A model generated the notes under the pieces. The model saw only the letters and a program-made list of their open reading frames with translations. It searched no databases and was not told where the DNA came from. Position numbers and translations under genes: made by a program. Below are positions 9,431 through 62,316 of a stretch of 64,000 bases of DNA, one piece after another (the stretch's first letter is position 1; each line of letters starts with the position of its first letter). This DNA is from Vicinamibacterales bacterium (GTDB taxonomy: Bacteria > Acidobacteriota > Vicinamibacteria > Vicinamibacterales > UBA2999): positions 23,032-87,031 of the forward strand of contig CAXNKG010000003.1 in assembly GCA_964202965.1 (NCBI GenBank). Reading direction: 5' to 3'.

Positions 9431-9949
9431 CTATTGCTTCTTGGGCAGCTCTGCGTCGCCCCGCTTGAGCACTTCGCGCATGTCCAGCGGATTCTGCATG
9501 GCGCCGTCGGGGCCGAGGGGTGAGGCCTTGGTTGCGGATCCGGCGTGGCTCTGCGGCTCGGCAGACGGACGCACCTTCAGCTGACCGGCCGCGCGATCGA
9601 GCGCCTGCTGCAGGAGGGCCGTGTCAAACGGCTTGGTCACGTACGCGACCGCGCCCATGAGCCGGCTCGTGCGAATCGTCGTGGGGTCGTCCCGGCCGGT
9701 GCTCATGACGACCGCCGTCTCAGGCCAGCAGGTCTCCACCTGCTCGACCAGCCACAACCCGTTGTACTCCGGCATGTTGATGTCGCAGAGCAGAATGTCG
9801 GCCGGGTCGGCCTTCATGGCGTCCATGGCGTCCATGGCGCTACCGACAGCCCGGACGTGTCCATATCCCCAACTCGTGAGCCAGCGCGACAGAAGCTGGC
9901 GAACCTGCGCCTCATCGTCGACGATCAGTACCTTCTTGTCGTGGGACAT
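9431..9949 (-). CDS. single-domain response regulator (REC) with C-terminal extension
   Basis: KVLIVDDEAQVRQLL..., phospho-acceptor context ILLCDINMP, and YVTKPF. Confidence 0.85.
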   Translation of the reverse strand: MSHDKKVLIVDDEAQVRQLLSRWLTSWGYGHVRAVGSAMDAMDAMKADPADILLCDINMPEYNGLWLVEQVETCWPETAVVMSTGRDDPTTIRTSRLMGAVAYVTKPFDTALLQQALDRAAGQLKVRPSAEPQSHAGSATKASPLGPDGAMQNPLDMREVLKRGDAELPKKQ

Positions 9950-9991: not shown

Positions 9992-11593
9992 TCAGGCCGA
10001 CTGCCGTCCTTCATCGGATGTGCCGCCGCTGCGCGAGCGCAACTGGCGGATGCTCTGTTCGATACGCTCGGCCAGCTCCCGTTCCTGGCTCAGCATGCGC
10101 AGCGTGTTCTGCGCCTCCTGCATCACGAACTGCACGCTCGACAGCTTCTCGGTGAGATGGTCGACCATCGCCTTCTGCTCGCCGACGGTCTCGAGATTAA
10201 CCCGGACGTCCTCGAGCAGGTTGGTGATGAGCGCAGTCTTCGACTGGACTTCGTCCACGTCGCGCCGGCGCGCCTCGATGGACGCGATCGCGTCGTCGGC
10301 GGCGGTCGCCAGCGCGAGCAGTTCCTGCACCTGCCGCCGGAGCCCCGTGACCTGGTCGCGGTGGTCGGTGACGAACAGCAGATCCTCGCGGCTCTTCGCG
10401 CTGATCGCGTGTACGGCCTCAAGCTCGGTGCGCACCGACGCGAGGACCGCTTCGCGGTCCGCGAGCCCCTTGAGCCGGTCGTCGATGTCGGTGGACGCCT
10501 GGGCCAGCTCGGCCATCTTCATCTCGACGCCCGAGAGCTTCTTCTCCGAGAAGGCCAGCTGGGATCGGCGCTGCTCAAGCTGGCGGTACATCGCGTCAGC
10601 GCGCCGCAGCTGCTCCTCGACGGTCTCGGCCTGTGCCACCGCCTCGCGCTGCCGCGCCTGGATGCGGGCGAGATCACCGAGGAGTTCCTCCTTGACGGCG
10701 CCGGAGCGCTCCAGCTCCTGCCGCAGCGTCTGCATCTGCTTCATGCGGTCGTCGGCCTCGTCCGCCAGCGCGCGGCTGGTATCGGACAGCTCGATGAGCC
10801 GCGCCTCCTGTTGCGCGAGGGCCTCCTCGTCGCGCTGGACGTCCTTGACGCGCGCCCCGGTCTTCTCGACGCGGTCTTCGAGAATCGACATGCGCACATC
10901 GAGCGGCGCGAGCTTTGCCTGCGACGCGATGACGGCATCGACCTTCTGCTGCGCGTCCAGCATCTGCGTAATGACGCCGTCGCAATCGGTCCTGAGCGCG
11001 TCGAGCTCGGCGCGCCGTTCCAGCTGCGTCGCAAGCCTGCGGTCCACCTCGCTCGCGACCTCATGGAGGCCGTTGAGGCGCCCCTCCACGGCCTCGACGA
11101 ACTGGATGCGCTCGGATACACGGACGACCTGGCCTTCAAGCGCGACCGACATCTCCGCCAGGCGCGAGGCGTGACGGAGGCCGTCGTCAATCTCCCCCAG
11201 CCGCCCGGTGATGGCGGTCATGGTCGCCTCGAGCTCCGGCGTCCGTGCACGGAATGACGACACACGGTCGGCGAACGATTCGAGCGCCGCCCGATCCGCC
11301 GTCAGCCGGTCGCGCAGCTGGGCGGCCTCCGCGTAGGACTGGTGGAAATCCTGGATCTCCTTGCGGAGCGTTTCGAGATCCGCGCGGCTCTGGCGCAGGC
11401 TCTCGTGCTGCGCCGCGGTCTTTGTGGACATGTCCTGCACGAGCGCGAGATGTTCGCGCAGCGATTCCAGGCTGGCCTGCCGCTGGCCCAGCTCGTCGGC
11501 CTGCTCGAGCAGGCGCTGAAACATGACGCTGAACTCCCCCATGCGGGCCGGGAGGTGCGACAGCTGGCGCTCGCGGGCCGCCAGCGTCTCCAT
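9992..11593 (-). CDS. large coiled-coil protein
   Basis: 533 aa, E/R/L/A/Q-rich heptad-like sequence throughout. Coiled-coil-like sequence continues upstream of the first ATG in the same frame. Confidence 0.7.
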   Translation of the reverse strand: METLAARERQLSHLPARMGEFSVMFQRLLEQADELGQRQASLESLREHLALVQDMSTKTAAQHESLRQSRADLETLRKEIQDFHQSYAEAAQLRDRLTADRAALESFADRVSSFRARTPELEATMTAITGRLGEIDDGLRHASRLAEMSVALEGQVVRVSERIQFVEAVEGRLNGLHEVASEVDRRLATQLERRAELDALRTDCDGVITQMLDAQQKVDAVIASQAKLAPLDVRMSILEDRVEKTGARVKDVQRDEEALAQQEARLIELSDTSRALADEADDRMKQMQTLRQELERSGAVKEELLGDLARIQARQREAVAQAETVEEQLRRADAMYRQLEQRRSQLAFSEKKLSGVEMKMAELAQASTDIDDRLKGLADREAVLASVRTELEAVHAISAKSREDLLFVTDHRDQVTGLRRQVQELLALATAADDAIASIEARRRDVDEVQSKTALITNLLEDVRVNLETVGEQKAMVDHLTEKLSSVQFVMQEAQNTLRMLSQERELAERIEQSIRQLRSRSGGTSDEGRQSA

Positions 11594-33170: not shown

Positions 33171-33589
33171 AAGCGTCGCAGCTTTCCGTAAGCCGAATCC
33201 TGTCCAGCCGTCGCGGCCTTGCGGCCGCTATGACCTGGACGACCATTCCTCTAGGCCCGCGATTGCTCGCGGGCTCAAGCGACCTACCCGGTGGCTTCGG
33301 ACGGGCCGTCCTCAAACGCCACCCTATTTGGTCTTGCTCCGTGCGGGGTTTTGCCTGCCACCCGTGTTGCCACGGGCGCGGTGCGCTCTTACCGCACCTT
33401 TTCACCCTTACCCACCATAGCGCCGAGGCGCGACGGTGGGCGGTATTTTTTCTGTGCCACTATCCGTCAAGTTGCCCTGCCCGGGCGTTACCCGGCGCAC
33501 TGCCCTCTGGAGTTCGGACTTTCCTCCCGCCTCCGCCGTTGGCCGTGAAGCCCGCGCGGAGACCGGCGGTCGTCTGGATTACTGCGACT
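33171..33589 (-). ncRNA. rnpB: RNase P RNA, bacterial type A
   Basis: The minus strand contains the universal cores GGAGGAAAGTCCGAACTCC, AAGGGTGAAAAGGTGCGGTAAGAGCGCACC and ACAGGATTCGGCTTAC. P1 pairing is GTCGCAG (33588..33582) with CTGCGAC (33181..33175). Only junk ORFs occur on both strands. The ends are approximate. Confidence 0.92.
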
Positions 33590-35043: not shown

Positions 35044-35129
35044 GGTTCCGGGTTCCACGTTCCGGGTTCCGGGTTCGATCGCAACGCCGAACATGAACCT
35101 GGAACCCGGAACCTGGAACTCGGAACTGT
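35044..35129. repeat. inverted pair of heptanucleotide arrays (GGTTCCG units) forming a long imperfect hairpin
   Basis: GGTTCCG GGTTCCA CGTTCCG GGTTCCG GGTTCGA - tcgcaacgc - CGAACAT GAACCTG GAACCCG GAACCTG GAACTCG GAACTGT. It fills the gap between the protease stop (35136) and the regulator start (35038). Confidence 0.85.
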
Positions 35130-39704: not shown

Positions 39705-40490
39705 CTACGGCTTGAAGAGCCGTACGAAGTTGTCGCGCGTGGCCGCGGCGATGTCGCCCGCCGTGGTGCCGCGGAGAGCGGCGACCGCGCTGGCGACGTG
39801 GATCACCCGAGCCGGCTCGTTGCGGGTTCCCCGGTGCGGCACCGGCGCCAGGAAGGGGCTGTCGGTTTCGATGAGGAGCCGATCGATCGGCACGAGCCTC
39901 GCGACGTCATGGAGCTCGTGTGCCCGCGGGAATGTCACGATGCCCGCCAGCGAGAGGTAGAAGCCGAGATCGAGCGCGCGCGCCGCCATGGCGCGGTCGC
40001 CCGTGAAGCAGTGCAGGACCACGCCGGTGTCGCCGGCGGATTCCTCCGCCAGTACGCGGAACGTATCCTCCTCTGCCTCCCGGGTATGGATGATGATGGG
40101 CAGCGCCAGGCGGCGGGCGGCGCGGATCTGTTCGCGGAAGACCGCCTGCTGCACATCGCGCGGCGCGAAGTCGTAGTGGTAGTCGAGCCCAATCTCCCCA
40201 AGTGCGCGGGCGGCGGGCCGGCCGGCGATGCGCGCCTCCACCAGGCGGGCCGCGCGGCCCGGGTCGTCCGCAAACTGCGCAGCGGCGTGGGGGTGGACCC
40301 CAACGGACAGCCTGATCGCGTCCCAGGCGGCGGTCACGACGTTGGCGCGCTCGTACTCCGCCTCGTCATCCGCCGCGATGATGACGAGCGCCCCCGTCAG
40401 CCCGGCGGCCCGGGCGCGCTCGATGACGGCTGGAAGATCGGCCTCGAACTCCTCGCCGGCCAGGTGGCAGTGCGAGTCAACGAAAGTCAA
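39705..40490 (-). CDS. tatD: TatD-family metal-dependent hydrolase
   Basis: TTG start giving (M)TFVDSHCHLAG; IIHTREAEEDT; LLIETDSPFLAP. Confidence 0.9.
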   Translation of the reverse strand: MTFVDSHCHLAGEEFEADLPAVIERARAAGLTGALVIIAADDEAEYERANVVTAAWDAIRLSVGVHPHAAAQFADDPGRAARLVEARIAGRPAARALGEIGLDYHYDFAPRDVQQAVFREQIRAARRLALPIIIHTREAEEDTFRVLAEESAGDTGVVLHCFTGDRAMAARALDLGFYLSLAGIVTFPRAHELHDVARLVPIDRLLIETDSPFLAPVPHRGTRNEPARVIHVASAVAALRGTTAGDIAAATRDNFVRLFKP

Positions 40491-40520
40491 AGGTCAAAAG
40501 TCAAAAGTCAAAAGTCAGGG
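40486..40520. repeat. heptanucleotide tandem array (GTCAAAR x5)
   Basis: GTCAAAG GTCAAAA GTCAAAA GTCAAAA GTCAGGG lies in the 38-nt gap between the metG stop and the tatD start. The tatD TTG codon lies in the first unit. Confidence 0.85.
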
Positions 40521-50287: not shown

Positions 50288-50316
50288 GGAGCAGCTAGGC
50301 TACCTTAGGTCGCCCA

Positions 50317-50372
50317 CCTTTGACCTTTGACCTTTGACCTTTGACCTTTGACCTTTGACTTCTGACTTTTGA
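50317..50372. repeat. heptanucleotide tandem array (CCTTTGA x6 perfect, then 2 degenerate)
   Basis: CCTTTGA x6, CTTCTGA, CTTTTGA. It starts one nt after the stop of the 50374..51081 gene and ends 30 nt before the DedA start. It is the reverse complement of the unit at 40486..40520. Confidence 0.9.
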
Positions 50373-50373
50373 C

Positions 50374-56126: not shown

Positions 56127-56204
56127 GGCTTTGGGCTTTGGGCTCTGGGCTTTAGGCTTTGGGCCGGCCAAGGGCCGAGAGCCAAAAGCCTAGCGCCTAG
56201 AGCC
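56127..56204. repeat. inverted pair of heptanucleotide arrays (GGCTTTG units) around a GGCCGGCC centre
   Basis: GGCTTTG GGCTTTG GGCTCTG GGCTTTA GGCTTTG GGCCGGC | CAAGGGC CGAGAGC CAAAAGC CTAGCGC CTAGAGC. It fills the ccmB-ccmC gap up to 1 nt from the ccmC ATG. Confidence 0.85.
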
Positions 56205-56885: not shown

Positions 56886-57586
56886 TACGTCGCCATCACT
56901 TTCCGGTACAGCGTCCTGAGCTCTTCAGGCCGGTCCGCCGAGCCCACCATCCGCCCATCCCGCAAAAAGATCGCGTGGTCGAGCAGGTCGCCCGCCAGAT
57001 CGAGGTCGTGCGTGGCGAGCACGATGATCGCGCCGGAATCGCGGAGCGCACGGAGTCGCGCCAGCAGCGCCGACCCGGACGCATCGTCGAGACCCGTGAA
57101 CGGCTCGTCGAGCAGCAGCAGCGTCGGCCGGTGAATCAGCGCGCGCTCCAGCGCCAGCCGCTGGCGCATCCCGCGCGAGAACGTCGACACCGGATCATCA
57201 GCGCGCTCCCCCAGGCCGGCGTGCGCCAGCGCCTCGGTGGCGGCGGCACGCGCATCCGGCACGCTGTAGAGCCCCGCGAAGAACTCCAGGTTCTCCCGCG
57301 CCGTGAGCTCGGGATAGAGGAAGAGGTCGTGGCCGAGCACGCCGATCGACCCACGAAGGGCCGCGCCATCCTGCCGGGGGTCGATCGTGCCGTAGCTGAT
57401 CAGCCCGCTCGTCGGACGAAGCAGGGTCGCCAGCATCGCAAGCATCGTCGACTTCCCTGCTCCGTTGGGACCAAGCAGGCCCAGGATGGTGCGACGGGGG
57501 ACGGTGAATGTGACATGAGAAACGGCCCTGCGGCGGCCGAAGTGGCGGGAGACGTCGTCAACCTGGAGCTCGTCGAAGGCGCTCAC
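56885..57586 (-). CDS. ccmA: haem exporter ATP-binding protein CcmA
   Basis: GTG 57586 overlaps the upstream stop (GTGA). Walker A GPNGAGKST, signature FSRGMRQRL, Walker B LLLLDEP. Confidence 0.9.
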   Translation of the reverse strand: MSAFDELQVDDVSRHFGRRRAVSHVTFTVPRRTILGLLGPNGAGKSTMLAMLATLLRPTSGLISYGTIDPRQDGAALRGSIGVLGHDLFLYPELTARENLEFFAGLYSVPDARAAATEALAHAGLGERADDPVSTFSRGMRQRLALERALIHRPTLLLLDEPFTGLDDASGSALLARLRALRDSGAIIVLATHDLDLAGDLLDHAIFLRDGRMVGSADRPEELRTLYRKVMAT

Positions 57587-58812
57587 GCGGCGACGTCCCT
57601 GCCGCCTCCCCTCGGGCCTGGATCGACATGATCCAGCTCGCCATAAATCTGTTCGAGTTCGGCAACGATGCGCTGGTGCCGCGCGTCGTCGGATCCGGAA
57701 GGCGCCCGTCGCCTCCGTTTGTATTCGAGCCCCGCAAGCTCCGCGAGGAGCTTCTCTCGTCGCGCGGCCAGGCGGCCTGCGGACCCATCCACGCGCGTGC
57801 GCCCGCTGAACCCGAGCCACAGGCCTCCCGCAATGACGAGGCCTGCGATCCCGAGCGCGGTGAACACGGGCGTGCGGCTATGCACCGGCAGGTCGGACAG
57901 CTCCATCGTCAGCGTCGAGCCAGCGGGCATCGCGTTGCCGCTGGCCAGGAGAAACGGCGTGCCCGTTTCTGGCGCCGTCACATCACCCACCGTCGAAAAT
58001 TGCGGCGACGATATCGAGACGGCTCCGACCTTCTCGATGGCGACGCTCAACTGCTCCAGCGCGACAGGCCAGGCCTGTTCAACGGTGATGTCCGCACTGG
58101 TGTACGGAAGCTGAAAGCCGACCTGGACGGACGTGAGCCCTGCGGCGAACGGTCCGACGACGGTCACGACGTCCCCGCTGATCGTCGCGCTGGGCGAAGA
58201 TCCTTCGAGCGTCGACGCGCCCGCCGCGCCCGTCGGGAGCTGCAGGATCAATGGACCACCGATGTCAACGCGCGCACGCGCGTTATTGACGATGTCGAAA
58301 ATGTAGAAGACGCGCAGCGTGTCGTCCCGGAACTCCATGAGGATGCGCGAATTCGGCCCAAGGACGACCGAGCCTTTGACGGGCGGCGCCGCGGCAGCCG
58401 CCGCGTCCTCCTGCGATTTTCGCGCGGCGGCGTCTTTCATCCCCGCCACGAGAATCACGCGGAGACCACCGGTCGCAGGCACCGTGAAGGAGTCGGAGGT
58501 CAGCGCCTCGCCGCCGATCGTGGCGTCGGCGCGCACTTCCGCGCCGGCTGTCAGGCCGGGAAACTCGGCACGGCCCTCCGCATCGGTCGTGGCTGTGCGC
58601 GGCTGTCCGTTGACCGTGAGGCGGACGCTCTGGCCGGTGATGTTGTTGCCGATGGCTTCACGGACGACGCGGACGGTCACCGTGCCTGGAGCGAGATCGC
58701 CCGCCGGGATCGCCCGGCCGTGAATCAACGACGGATCCGGCATGGCAATCTGGGCGAACAGCACCCCAAATCCCAGAAGCCACATCCCACAACCCAAAAC
58801 GACCCGCGTCAC
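57583..58812 (-). CDS. uncharacterised exported protein with CarboxypepD_reg-like N-domain, C-terminal TM anchor and cytoplasmic coiled-coil tail
   Basis: 409 aa. Signal-like N-terminus, GTVTVRVV...GQSVRLTVNGQPRTATTDAEGRAEFPGL beta-sandwich, TM ALGIAGLVIAGGLWLGF, then RREKLLAELAGLEYKRR...IVAELEQIYGELD. GTGA overlaps on both sides. Confidence 0.6.
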   Translation of the reverse strand: MTRVVLGCGMWLLGFGVLFAQIAMPDPSLIHGRAIPAGDLAPGTVTVRVVREAIGNNITGQSVRLTVNGQPRTATTDAEGRAEFPGLTAGAEVRADATIGGEALTSDSFTVPATGGLRVILVAGMKDAAARKSQEDAAAAAAPPVKGSVVLGPNSRILMEFRDDTLRVFYIFDIVNNARARVDIGGPLILQLPTGAAGASTLEGSSPSATISGDVVTVVGPFAAGLTSVQVGFQLPYTSADITVEQAWPVALEQLSVAIEKVGAVSISSPQFSTVGDVTAPETGTPFLLASGNAMPAGSTLTMELSDLPVHSRTPVFTALGIAGLVIAGGLWLGFSGRTRVDGSAGRLAARREKLLAELAGLEYKRRRRAPSGSDDARHQRIVAELEQIYGELDHVDPGPRGGGRDVAA

Positions 58813-59348
58813 GCTTTCACCAGTCCGCCGCCACAGTTCTTACAGAACCGCGCGTCGACTTCGTTCGCGGTCCCGCAGCTCGCGCAGGTCGGAATCGCGG
58901 GCGCGGTGACCCGCCTGGCGAGTTCATCCTCGATCTGCTGCCGATAGCTCGCGCCGGCGTCGAGTTGCCGCAGGAGGCCGGCAGCGCGGAGGCGGAGCCG
59001 CGCGCCCATCTCCGCACAATCCTTCTCCGAGACCTTGCCCATGGCGCGGTCGAATTCCAGATCCTTGATGGCCCGCAGCACGAGCGTCTTCTCGCGCTCG
59101 AGCGCCGCACGGGTACGGCCGCCGAGCATCTGCGGTGCCATGGGATCCTCCGCGCTGCCGAACGGCGCGAACGTGCGCCAGGCCGCGTAACCCACGAGCG
59201 CCGCGCCAAAAATAATCAGGCTGAGGAGGATGACGCCGGCAGGCGTCTCGCCGCGGGACATGAACACGACGACCGTCGCACCGATCAGGCCGGCGAGGGT
59301 GAAGAGCTGCCAGGGTTGAAACGCGTCAGTCGAGGTTTCGGAGCTCAT
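58809..59348 (-). CDS. uncharacterised two-TM protein with coiled coil and C-terminal zinc ribbon
   Basis: ATG 59348 (MSSETSTDAFQPWQLF...), overlapping the end of ccmF-H by 23 nt. Two TM helices, LEREKTLVLRAIKDLEFDRAMGKVSEKD, C-terminal CASCGTANEVDARFCKNCG. The rest of track ORF 58809..59738 is out-of-frame overlap. Confidence 0.6.
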   Translation of the reverse strand: MSSETSTDAFQPWQLFTLAGLIGATVVVFMSRGETPAGVILLSLIIFGAALVGYAAWRTFAPFGSAEDPMAPQMLGGRTRAALEREKTLVLRAIKDLEFDRAMGKVSEKDCAEMGARLRLRAAGLLRQLDAGASYRQQIEDELARRVTAPAIPTCASCGTANEVDARFCKNCGGGLVKA

Positions 59349-61788
59349 CGTCGAGACGGGCGCTCGTGGTCGCGTCCATTCCGGCGTCGCCGGCGGCCGC
59401 CGGAACCGCGCGCGTCGACCAGCGGCGCGCAGTGACGAAGATGCCGGCGAGGGCGGCAAGCGCGACGAGATACGGCACAATCCAGGCGAGGCGATTGAAC
59501 CCGCGATCAATCGGCGCGGCCAGGATGGCCTGGCTCCCGAACTCCGCGGCGAACGCGTCCCGAACCTCGTCATAGCCCTTGCCTTCCGCGAGGAAGGCTT
59601 CGAGCCGCGCCGCCTGCTGATCGTAGTGCCCGCAATTCGGGCGCATCGGGCAGCTGCCCATCGGCGACTGGCAGCCGCAGGTGCACATGATGTCACCCTC
59701 GAGCTGCCGATGCAGCTCGCTGCGCTGGTTCGGGGCAACGGTTTCGGTGGTTTGCGCGATCACCGACGCCGGCCACAGGAGCAGCGAGAACAGCAGCAGC
59801 GATGACGTGACGGCATTCGACGGCACCTTCGCCAGCGCGAATCCGAGCGCCGCTTCCGGCAGGAGCGCGATGCCGGTGCCGAGCGCAAGAATGCCGAACC
59901 CGGCCCACACCCAGTTCACCAGGGGGTTGACGACAATCTCCATGCTGGCGCTCTGCTCCTGCAGGTCGAACGCGGGCAGGACGAGGTAGAGGTCTTCAGA
60001 GAACGTGCGGCGGATCGCCACCTCGGTGGTGGGCTGATCCTCATGCTTCCGGAAATACCACTTCGCCGGATACATCTTCCCGATCTCTTCCCCGTCGCGG
60101 AACACGGTGGTGTGCGCCGTGATCATCTGCTTCTGGCCGTCGTCGGTGACGCGGACGGTGTCGAGGCGGACGGTGAAGTCGCCGACCTGGGCCTGCTGCC
60201 CGGGTTTGAGCAGTAACTGCTCGTCCTGCTTGAATCCCTCACCCGCGAAGCCCAGGAACATCAGAACGATGCCGATATGGACGATGTAGCCGCCGTACCG
60301 GCGCTTGTTGCGTGCCACGAGGCCGATGAGCGCCGTGAAGACGTCCGTGCCAGTGGCGTCCTGGCGAACCCGGGCGCCGCGCCAGAACTCCTGGCCGATC
60401 GTTCCCACGACGAAGCCGCAGAGTGCAAAGCAGATCCCAGAGGTCCAGACGCGCACGCCGAGCGCGACGAGCGCCCCGCCGACGACGAGCGCGGTCGCCA
60501 CGGGAATGAGGAACTGCTGCCGCAGATTCGTCACCGTCGTCTTCCGCCACGCGAGCAGCGGGCCCACGCCCGTGAGCACGAGCAGGATGAGGCCGACCGG
60601 GAGCATCCACTTGTTGAAGAACGGCGGACCCACGGTCAGCCGTTCGCCCGTGACTGCCTCACTGATCGTCGGAAAGAGCGTCCCGAACGCGATGAAAAAC
60701 GCCGAGAAGAGCAGGATCCAGTTATTGGCGAGAAAGGCGGCTTCGCGCGACATCCACGAATCGAGCTCGTTCCGCGCCCGCAGCAGCGGCAGCCGGTAGA
60801 TGACGAACCCGAAACTGACGGTCAGGATGGTCACCATGAAGATGATGAACATCCGGGCAAGCTCGGGGTCTTCGCCAAACGCATGGACCGACTGCACGAT
60901 TCCCGACCGCGTCAGGAACGTGCCGAAGATCGTCAGGAAGAACGTGAGGATGACGAGCGTGACGTTCCAGACGCGCAGCATGCCGCGCTGCTCCTGCACG
61001 CGCACCGAATGCAGGAACGCGGTCGCAGTGAACCACGGCAGCAATCCCGCGTTCTCGACCGGGTCCCAGCCCCAGTAGCCGCCCCATCCGAGCTCTTCGT
61101 ACGCCCAGATCATCCCGAGCCCGAGTCCGACCGACAGGAACAGCCACGAGATCATCGTCCAGCGGCGGACGGCGCGCAGCCACGAGTCGTCCAGATACCC
61201 GGTGATGAGCGCCGCCATGCCGAACGCGAACGGAATCGTCAGGCCGACGAACCCCGTGTACATGGTGGGCGGGTGAATCACCATGTAGAAGTTCTGCAGC
61301 AGCGGGCTGAGGCCGGCGCCGTCGGTGGGGCTCTCGGTCAGGTACGTCGAGAACGGGTTGTTGTGGACGATCATCAGGAACAGGAAGAACATCTGAACCG
61401 TCGAGATGACCGCCACCACATACGGGATCAATTCCCTGTGGCGTTCCCTGTTCACGAAGACCGCGGCGCTGCCGAAGCAGGACAGCAGGAACACCCAGAA
61501 CATGATCGAGCCGTCGAGCCCGCCCCAGTACGACGTGATCTTGAAGAAGAGCGGCTGGACCGAATCCGAATAGCGCTGGACGTACTTGATCGAATAGTCG
61601 CCGACGACGAAGGCGTAGACGATGATGGCTGACGCGGCCGTCATGATGGCCGCAACGAAATAGAACGCCCCGATACCGCTTTCAATCAGTCGTGTGGAGC
61701 GCCGGCGTGCGCCCGCGACCGATGCCGCGAAGGCATACGCGCACACCACGAACGCGCTGAGAAGAAGGTAGTAGCCGAGGGATGCCAT
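59326..61788 (-). CDS. ccmF: cytochrome c haem lyase CcmF fused in frame to a CcmH-like domain
   Basis: 820 aa. CcmF core with WGGYWGWDPVENA. The last ~165 aa have a signal-like segment SSLLLFSLLLWPASVIAQ, IMCTCGCQSPMGSCPMRPNCG, LAEGKGYDEVRDAFAAEFGSQAILAAP and a TM helix, which is the CcmH/NrfF-like layout. Confidence 0.9.
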   Translation of the reverse strand: MASLGYYLLLSAFVVCAYAFAASVAGARRRSTRLIESGIGAFYFVAAIMTAASAIIVYAFVVGDYSIKYVQRYSDSVQPLFFKITSYWGGLDGSIMFWVFLLSCFGSAAVFVNRERHRELIPYVVAVISTVQMFFLFLMIVHNNPFSTYLTESPTDGAGLSPLLQNFYMVIHPPTMYTGFVGLTIPFAFGMAALITGYLDDSWLRAVRRWTMISWLFLSVGLGLGMIWAYEELGWGGYWGWDPVENAGLLPWFTATAFLHSVRVQEQRGMLRVWNVTLVILTFFLTIFGTFLTRSGIVQSVHAFGEDPELARMFIIFMVTILTVSFGFVIYRLPLLRARNELDSWMSREAAFLANNWILLFSAFFIAFGTLFPTISEAVTGERLTVGPPFFNKWMLPVGLILLVLTGVGPLLAWRKTTVTNLRQQFLIPVATALVVGGALVALGVRVWTSGICFALCGFVVGTIGQEFWRGARVRQDATGTDVFTALIGLVARNKRRYGGYIVHIGIVLMFLGFAGEGFKQDEQLLLKPGQQAQVGDFTVRLDTVRVTDDGQKQMITAHTTVFRDGEEIGKMYPAKWYFRKHEDQPTTEVAIRRTFSEDLYLVLPAFDLQEQSASMEIVVNPLVNWVWAGFGILALGTGIALLPEAALGFALAKVPSNAVTSSLLLFSLLLWPASVIAQTTETVAPNQRSELHRQLEGDIMCTCGCQSPMGSCPMRPNCGHYDQQAARLEAFLAEGKGYDEVRDAFAAEFGSQAILAAPIDRGFNRLAWIVPYLVALAALAGIFVTARRWSTRAVPAAAGDAGMDATTSARLDDELRNLD

Positions 61789-61800
61789 GTCAGCCCTCGG

Positions 61801-62316
61801 CTAGTACGACGTACTAGGGGTTCCTGAAGTTCCTAGGGTTCCTGAGGTTCCTAGGGTTCCTGAGGTTCCTAGGGTTCCTGAGGTTCCTAGGGTTCCTGGG
61901 GTTCCTGGAGTGCCTGAAGTTCCTGGGGTGCCGCCGACCTGGGGCTCGTATTTCGACGGGCACTTCGCGGTCATGCTGGTCGCGTGGAAGCCGTCCTCCG
62001 CGAGCGTGCCCTGAAGCACCACCTCAGACTCGTTCTTGAACGTGTCGGGAACGACGCCCGTATACGTGGCGCGTACCACGTGCCCCTTGCTGTGCATCTC
62101 GAAGCTGTAGTCGAGGGAGTCGCGCTTGCGGCGGATGTCCCTGGCGTAGCCGTGAATCTGGAGCGGCTTGCCGTACCAGGGTGCCGGCTGGACCATCACT
62201 TCCTCGACGTGCTTGTAGTACTGCGCGCTCTCGCCGAGCGTGGAATAGAGCAGCCCCCCGAAGGCGAGGGTCAGCACCACGCCGGTGATCCCGATTTTCG
62301 CGGCTTTGTGACTCAT
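61801..62316 (-). CDS. ccmE: haem chaperone CcmE, CxxxY variant with Gly-Thr-X repeat tail
   Basis: ATG 62316 ([23 protein letters not shown]). OB-fold core. MTAKCPSKY aligns where canonical CcmE has the HxxxY haem-binding motif. The tail is [43 protein letters not shown]. Confidence 0.88.
61818..61934. repeat. 13 tandem 9-bp units (GGTTCCTNR) inside the ccmE 3' end
   Basis: The 18-bp unit GGTTCCTGAGGTTCCTAG occurs about 4 times, flanked by degenerate 9-mers. It shares the GGTTCC core with the array at 35044..35129. Confidence 0.9.

Follow-up and report, generated by a model that had tools for sequence, protein, structure and literature searches.

A System I* CcmE of Vicinamibacterales whose predicted disordered tail is encoded by a 9-bp tandem repeat array

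The ccm genes of a Vicinamibacterales bacterium (GenBank assembly GCA_964202965.1, contig CAXNKG010000003.1, positions 23,032 to 87,031; this whole stretch of 64,000 nucleotides is called the window here, and positions are counted from its first letter) include a minus-strand gene, ccmE, for the haem chaperone of cytochrome c biogenesis. Its product has a cysteine where a histidine is usual and ends in a run of Gly-Thr-X triplets encoded by a 9-bp tandem repeat. What kind of CcmE is this, how did the repeat come to lie in its reading frame, and does the length of the resulting tail matter to the protein? In this paper we argue that the gene very probably encodes a System I* CcmE, that a microsatellite codes for its predicted disordered tail, and that the growth of this microsatellite by tandem duplication here has probably had little effect on function.

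The identity of the gene is well supported. Pfam CcmE (PF03100) matched at 72.3 bits (cut-off 24.6) over residues 52-146 of the 191-aa open reading frame (ORF), and NCBIfam CcmE models matched the product with scores under their equivalog cut-offs. An AlphaFold2 (AF2) model, built on an alignment of 35 sequences, was compared with known structures by Foldseek, and the best matches in PDB were all CcmE (8ce8_E, 1sr3, 1lm0, 1j6q and 2kct). With the neighbouring ccm genes, these results bear out the preliminary description of this DNA, which had named the gene from its sequence. The strands of the OB (oligonucleotide/oligosaccharide-binding) fold lie at residues 33-36, 51-63, 69-76, 79-86, 98-106 and 109-118 of the model. 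Homologues were collected from metagenome-assembled genomes of Vicinamibacterales/Acidobacteriota (n = 147; L-numbers below are loci or contigs of relatives and P-numbers are homologous proteins). All of them start MSHKAAKIG and a longer start at GTG 62376 would overlap the upstream maf gene, so the ATG at 62316 is preferred as the likely start; the stop is TAG (61803-61801). The window protein was absent from a collection of 15 billion proteins when looked up by exact match.

Typically, CcmE is classed by the residues at its haem attachment site. Canonical System I proteins have HxxxY with His at the haem position, whereas System I* proteins have CxxxY, with Tyr rarely replaced by Phe, and CPSKY is the majority motif of variant CcmEs (PMC3601427). 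In phmmer alignments to solved CcmE chains, the window sequence AKCPSKY was aligned to AKHDENY of 8ce8_E and 1j6q (E. coli and Shewanella-type) and to KCPLEH of 2kct, the CcmE of Desulfovibrio vulgaris. Cys119 therefore occupies the position of E. coli His130, as the preliminary description had proposed, and with Tyr four residues on, the protein has the pattern of System I* and not that of System I. CPSKY is invariant in 147 of 147 homologues. Cysteine-type CcmE was first noted in archaea and Desulfovibrio (PMC3601427), and the Cys is required in Methanosarcina acetivorans and binds haem in D. desulfuricans (PMC9084895; PMC3884852). The exchange of His for Cys in CcmE is thus already published as System I* and is nothing new; in the window protein, Cys119 is the putative site of covalent haem attachment. 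Absence of CcmH was part of the original description of System I* and does not apply to the window, where a CcmH domain is fused to CcmF. A later review deems this absence uncharacteristic, and about one-third of bacteria with variant CcmE also possess CcmH (PMC3601427), so its presence does not exclude membership of System I*.

Like the System I* proteins of D. desulfuricans, D. vulgaris (2KCT) and M. acetivorans, the window CcmE has Cys for His and Tyr at +4, and it shares with the Desulfovibrio and archaeal proteins the OB fold, the membrane anchor and the company of ccmF and ccmABC. It differs from them in its phylum (Acidobacteriota), in the fusion of CcmH to CcmF and in its Gly-Thr-X repeat tail. 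E. coli CcmE (1SR3; 8CE8 chain E) is similar in architecture and in that the haem residue opens a flexible C-terminal region, and its approximately 30 residues past the motif are comparable with the tails of Vicinamibacterales. It differs in having His130 rather than Cys and in a tail that is non-repetitive and has no tandem-repeat coding.

Residues 125-168 of the window protein had a predicted local distance difference test score (pLDDT) below 50 and no secondary structure in the AF2 model. A flexible C-terminal tail is a general trait of the CcmE family; in the E. coli protein everything from residue 128 onward is flexible, and the haem ligands lie on that part (PMC6204919; PMC10457321). Tails after CPSKY are present in all 147 homologues and range from 7 to 31 residues (median 16), with many G, T, A, P and S; the window tail, at 48 residues, is the longest seen. 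The middle of the tail, between CPSKY and the last residues, is not conserved, and the tail mostly ends in one of three residues, Y (67 homologues), N (54) or F (14). The closest relatives (90-97% identity) keep the same reading frame and the terminal STSY in tails of different lengths, which argues for a translated tail. The preliminary description had suspected a polymorphic copy number, and close relatives do differ in it, since members of 90%-identity clusters span 136-154 aa and P0126 carries one additional GTL. The window tail is, then, an unusually long case of a hypervariable, lineage-typical CcmE tail.

The repeat within this tail consists of exactly 13 consecutive GTx triplets, including five GTP and four GTS, with X being Pro, Ser or Leu (Table 1). 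Tandem Repeats Finder (TRF) reported a period of 18 (6.2 copies, 91% matches, score 175) and also a period of 9 (12.6 copies). The 18-bp unit GGAACCCTAGGAACCTCA is present in three perfect copies and one with a single C>T change; the preliminary description, which had recognized the AKCPSKY motif and the 13 triplets, had given this as a near-perfect fourfold repeat running to within approximately 15 nt of the stop, and the distance measured here is 12 nt (codons S-T-S-Y). The 70-nt core that is perfectly 18-periodic is the most recent tandem duplication of the array. Over the 13 units the base counts are G13 G13 A11 A13 C13 C10 Y Y A12, that is, 11 of the units are of the GGA type, and individual units have acquired substitutions (ACT, GGC, CCT).

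Table 1. Positions in the window of ccmE, its parts and the adjoining ccmF
Feature	Position	Strand	Basis or remark
ccmE coding sequence, System I* haem chaperone	61801..62316	-	171 aa + stop; ORF list, Pfam, homologue starts, Foldseek
N-terminal membrane anchor, residues 4-30	62227..62307	-	AF2 helix; K4, K7, then 20-residue hydrophobic stretch
Periplasmic OB-fold beta-barrel, residues 33-118	61963..62220	-	AF2 pLDDT mostly >90; Foldseek
Haem-binding motif CPSKY, Cys119...Tyr123	61948..61962	-	alignment to E. coli H130DENY134 and to the Cys of D. vulgaris CcmE
C-terminal tail, 48 residues: EPQVG, 13 GTx triplets, STSY	61804..61947	-	predicted disordered
Coding microsatellite, 13 x 9-bp GG(A/C)-AC(C/T)-YYA, Gly-Thr-(Pro/Ser/Leu)	61816..61932	-	TRF, position weight matrix
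Perfectly 18-periodic core, 70 nt (GGAACCCTAGGAACCTCA x3 + partial copy)	61829..61898	-	52 consecutive lag-18 matches
17-nt palindrome CTAGTACGaCGTACTAG over P-S-T-S-Y-stop	61801..61817	.	judged incidental
ccmF with fused C-terminal CcmH-like domain, predicted acceptor of CcmE haem	59326..61788	-	Pfam Cytochrom_C_asm, CcmF_C, CcmH

Did the array arise where it now lies? In relatives the homologous tail sits between the same flanks (EPQVGG ... STSY*, followed by the ccmF Shine-Dalgarno sequence and ATG) and contains one to four units, GGC-ACN-NNN in L001, L050, L058, L051 and L053 and four GGA-ACC-YYA in L059 and L060. Homologous 9-bp units between identical flanks indicate that the array grew in place and is not a foreign insertion. 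The preliminary description had offered as one of two explanations that an intergenic-type repeat had been absorbed into the frame; the relatives' own GT[LSP] tails speak against this as a literal insertion, and a weaker form of it survives in the non-coding occurrences and nucleotide-level conservation described below.

We suggest the following course of events. CcmE would be anchored in the membrane by its single N-terminal helix, with the OB-fold barrel in the periplasm; haem from CcmABC would be bound at Cys119/Tyr123, at the root of the flexible tail, and would then be handed to the CcmF-CcmH fusion, whose gene starts 12 nt further on. Slippage in frame or unequal exchange would alter the length of the microsatellite (GGN-ACN-YYN) from one close relative to another, and in the window genome it would have grown to 13 units, with tandem duplication of the 18-bp unit as the latest step. 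This growth probably matters little or not at all to haem delivery.

The same unit occurs outside ccmE. For the purpose of this analysis we defined a class of GGAACC-YYA arrays, which is not a published family, by tandem 9-bp units with a GGAACC core, a variable YY and A at position 9. The window array belongs to it. A scan of metagenome contigs with the 18-mer gave 11 stretches, of which six lie within arrays and five are isolated, the latter by our estimate at about chance level for so large a collection. The 18-mer is identical in L039, L040, L042 and L048. In L040 and L048 (GC 63-66%) it forms part of inverted arrays of 9-bp units in the non-coding DNA at the ends of genes, after a protease gene in L040 and between convergent genes in L048, which has two copies, 36 nt identical to the window array. 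The TerC protein encoded beside the L048 array has relatives at 81-83% identity that are named Vicinamibacterales or Acidobacteriota. The window array lies inside an ORF and has no such inverted partner within 400 nt on the mRNA strand, much like the coding arrays of a biotin carboxylase gene, which also consist of a single arm. In L039 such an array lies in frame near the 3' end of that gene (1028-1071). In all orthologues of the biotin carboxylase (P0269-P0329) a conserved DPFxxLRGFRV C-terminus follows a (GT[PSLAQ])n tract that is hypervariable, and in four contigs (L039, L055, L056, L057) the tract is coded GGA-ACC-YYA despite only 44-68% identity at 4-fold sites of the gene bodies, in which GGA is rare. 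A matrix of 47 coding units shows positions 3, 6 and 9 conserved at 94%, 83% and 87%, and only positions 7-8 vary, between C and T, which explains why X is Pro, Ser or Leu. No relevant literature was found on Vicinamibacter tandem repeats or on collagen-like CcmE.

Several minor observations concern these arrays. The non-coding inverted GGTTCCTRR/YYAGGAACC arrays abut stop codons (L048, 720-816; L040, 225-332) and have in common an outer end, gtaGGTTCC, and an inner end, AGGTTCGT, despite different neighbouring genes. L054, whose TerC is 96% identical, has a single unit (10889-10905) at the site of the 97-bp hairpin array of L048. The last codons of the biotin carboxylase gene, GGG TTC CGT GTC, hold the complementary GGTTCC and overlap the start of a gene for a biotinyl-domain protein. 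In the biotin carboxylase genes, where GGGTTCCGTG overlaps the start of the next gene, the GGAACC array looked by eye as if it could pair with a GGUUCC close to that start. Such an RNA hairpin was considered and rejected, with weak folding z-scores (-0.4 to -1.8) and a ccmE mRNA that has no GGUUYY partner within 400 nt.

These findings include points that weigh against simple slippage in a tolerant protein tail. Slippage combined with selection on the protein does not predict synonymous positions 3, 6 and 9 that are more conserved than positions 7-8, which is the reverse of what protein-level selection should produce. The units are made of codons rare in this genome (in six neighbouring genes GGA makes up 10.5%, CTA 1.3%, TCA 2.9% and CCA 5.2% of their codon families), and the GC content of third codon positions (GC3) is 0.31 in the array and 0.89 in the remainder of ccmE. 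The 18-mer, and in L048 the 36-mer, is found in non-coding hairpin arrays and in the tail of another gene. Neighbour joining on the 369 nt of the ccmE domain distributes the GGAACC-type tails over both sub-clades of close relatives, so that they occur in non-sister relatives; L059, of the GGA type, has 97% domain identity to L051, whose tail is of the GGC type and different in sequence. The 13-unit copy number is that of the assembled sequence. The gene's identity, the alignment of its motif, the variation of the tail, the make-up of the repeat and the predicted disorder are direct results; covalent binding of haem to Cys119, slippage as the mechanism and the neutrality of the expansion are inferred.

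What, then, maintains the unit? As far as can be judged from the sequences compared, GGAACC-YYA belongs to a repeat type present in coding and non-coding DNA of Vicinamibacterales and conserved at the nucleotide level. Ectopic conversion or recombination between strains may have brought this conservation about, and so may a sequence-specific process or selection at the DNA or RNA level. A bolder account, which we hold only tentatively and consider less probable than its opposite, is that GGAACC-YYA is a lineage-wide Vicinamibacterales repeat that is kept at the nucleic-acid level, builds intergenic hairpins and has repeatedly been written in frame into disordered tails (CcmE, biotin carboxylase), with YYA dictating Pro, Ser or Leu; the window tail would be the largest known coding instance and would merely be tolerated by the protein. 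Such maintenance could involve, for example, a protein that binds repeated AGGAACC. CsrA-like binding to repeated AGGA was also considered as a candidate.

The dispersed GGAACC-YYA family might also be the source of the array, which, whether copied from it or formed by ectopic conversion, would have overwritten an ancestral GT-rich tail and then expanded, so that the GT[PSL] peptide would be a by-product. The exact 18-mer in the inverted arrays of L040 and L048, the in-frame units of the four biotin carboxylase tails, the fixed GGAACC and final A of the 47-unit matrix and the two kinds of ccmE tail on nearly identical domains all favour this, as does a (GGTTCCG)n/(GGAACCY)n hairpin at 35044-35126 of the same window. 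However, L001, L050 and L058 encode PGTLGTSGT in place with GC-rich codons, so the peptide need not stem from the GGAACC form. The flanks are unchanged, no inverted (GGUUYY) partner was found within 400 nt of the ccmE array on the mRNA strand, and no period-9 donor array was seen in the 64-kb window. The apparent recurrence is based on a 369-nt tree and could be mimicked by recombination between strains. We regard overwriting from a dispersed copy as unlikely, and growth of the microsatellite in place remains the preferred explanation.

If the tail instead served as a flexible spacer of tuned length, or as a Thr-rich linker bearing glycans, and helped the haem-loaded end to reach the CcmF-CcmH synthase, its expansion would have been selected. 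Its presence in every homologue with a biased last residue, the retention of frame and STSY end in length variants, and the location of the E. coli haem ligands on the flexible C-terminal part speak for such a function. Nearly identical domains nevertheless carry tails of 7-48 aa, with the window as an outlier, so that no particular length is conserved; nor is the sequence that links CPSKY to the final residues, and glycosylation is without evidence. A functional role for tail length is therefore improbable.

It is more improbable still that the 13 units are an assembly artefact and that the true tail has approximately 4-7 units like those of relatives. The maximum elsewhere is 31 aa, and tandem repeats are error-prone in assemblies. 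Against this, the array is just 117 bp with a periodic part of 70 nt, below the length of common reads and k-mers, and it is in frame with units that have their own substitutions, which fits a real, ageing array.

That (Gly-X-Y)13 forms a collagen-type triple helix trimerising CcmE is scarcely credible: the 13 unbroken triplets, the weak phmmer matches of the window protein to collagen chains and a Pfam Collagen (PF01391) match of E = 1e-4 speak for it, and this reading was rejected because that match scores 22.4 bits, under the gathering score of 27.2, and because Gly periodicity is not conserved in orthologues, in which the longest uninterrupted Gxx run is at most five triplets (1-3 in 137 of 147). 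Only five of the 26 X/Y positions are Pro, there is no trimerisation domain, a stable collagen helix needs more than thirteen proline-poor triplets, and the tail is disordered in the AF2 monomer model. The "collagen-like" tail of the preliminary description is thus a likeness in form only. Polymorphic arrays of 9-bp period that encode Gly-X-Y with Thr are known from Bacillus anthracis BclA, with (GPT)n, and from streptococcal Scl, where copy number varies among strains. Those proteins differ in that their triplets run to tens, X is often Pro and a trimerisation domain is present, whereas the window has 13 proline-poor triplets on the tail of a monomeric chaperone.

The picture of cytochrome c biogenesis is little altered by these results. 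Vicinamibacterales, which are abundant soil Acidobacteriota, join the users of cysteine-type CcmE, here with a CcmF-CcmH fusion, and the CcmE tail is seen to tolerate a seven-fold range of length. The main interest lies in the repeat family, with its conserved synonymous positions, rare codons and presence in both protein tails and non-coding hairpins, rather than in CcmE. Should this hold across whole genomes, it would clearly exemplify how repeat dynamics at the nucleotide level create and reshape disordered segments of bacterial proteins, and would offer a strain-typing marker for uncultured soil lineages.

Period-7 intergenic arrays are common in the window (35044-35126, 56127-56204, 50316-50373, 40483-40517) and occur in L001-L038 near locus position 9500. 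They form a non-coding set separate from the 9-bp array of ccmE. Many come as inverted pairs with the potential for long hairpins. One pair, (GGTTCCG)n/(GGAACCY)n, separates two genes of the minus strand, and another, (GGCTTTG)n and its partner, separates ccmB from ccmC. Relatives have other units at the same locus position (TTTGGGA, AAATCCC/TTTGGGT, CAACTCC/TTGGGAG and AACTCCC/GAGTTGG), which indicates that the heptamer unit turns over at conserved sites. The core that the preliminary description saw in both the 35044 array and ccmE is real, in that the hexamer GGTTCC is present in the 7-bp array, and the GGTTCC core of this hairpin and the ccmE array may be the same phenomenon. We estimate roughly that a random heptamer array would contain GGTTCC in well under 1% of cases; the units of the remaining heptamer arrays, in the window and in relatives, are unrelated to it. 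GGTTCC was rejected as a word enriched throughout the window, where 35 sites were counted and 33 expected.

Heptameric intergenic simple sequence repeats are over-represented in Xanthomonas and Nostoc (PMC4692102), and TAACTGA repeats occur in Beggiatoaceae (PMC4679880); a literature search for heptameric intergenic repeats found nothing for Acidobacteriota. Those repeats are like GGAACC-YYA in being lineage-specific, short-period arrays at gene ends, sometimes inverted and varying among relatives. The ccmE unit is unlike them in its period of 9 and its place inside a reading frame.

The stop codon of ccmE lies in a 17-nt near-palindrome to which the preliminary description drew attention. It exists, and there is nothing remarkable in it, for perfect palindromes with 8-nt arms and spacers of 0-3 nt number 19 in the window and approximately 10 in Markov controls, and four of the 19 have a 1-nt spacer. 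Its codons, AGT ACG TCG TAC TAG, are largely common to relatives. A function for the palindrome was rejected in view of this frequency and of its origin in the S-T-S-Y-stop codons. Neither folding nor the search for a partner on the mRNA revealed a convincing RNA structure at the ccmE array, and no Rfam family matched at the arrays. The only Rfam match in the window was a bacterial RNase P class A RNA (33174-33585, minus strand, 287.8 bits).

On the minus strand the gene order is ccmE, ccmF::ccmH, two ORFs of no known role, ccmA, ccmB and ccmC, and L051 has the same order. The CcmH domain, at residues 667-812 of CcmF, scored 36.8 bits (cut-off 25), ccmF starts 12 nt past the ccmE stop, and the fusion is conserved in relatives. 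The CcmH-like domain has the Cys-rich motif IMCTCGCQSPMGSCPMRPNCGH in place of the usual LRCxxCQ, and a CxCGxC-type motif is conserved across Vicinamibacterales loci. Of the two ORFs between ccmF::ccmH and ccmA, one (58809-59348, minus strand, approximately 179 aa) has a C-terminal zinc ribbon (DUF7577), and the other (57583-58812, minus strand, 409 aa) has no family besides a weak CarboxypepD_reg match. Both keep their place in L051 and in the P0140 contig, and these conserved ORFs may be lineage-specific accessory proteins of the Ccm system. The closest relative in the genome collection, L001 (CAMDNQ010000024.1; 97% CcmE identity), is labelled Candidatus Sulfopaludibacter sp. SbA3, a label that looks inconsistent, since the remaining close matches all carry Vicinamibacterales labels. 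Between ccmE and ccmF, a 7-nt inverted repeat (CCGAGGG/CCCTCGG on the mRNA strand, 61775-61781 and 61794-61800) pairs the ccmF Shine-Dalgarno sequence with codons 3-5; its sequence is conserved in L001-L003, and it could couple the translation of ccmF to that of ccmE.

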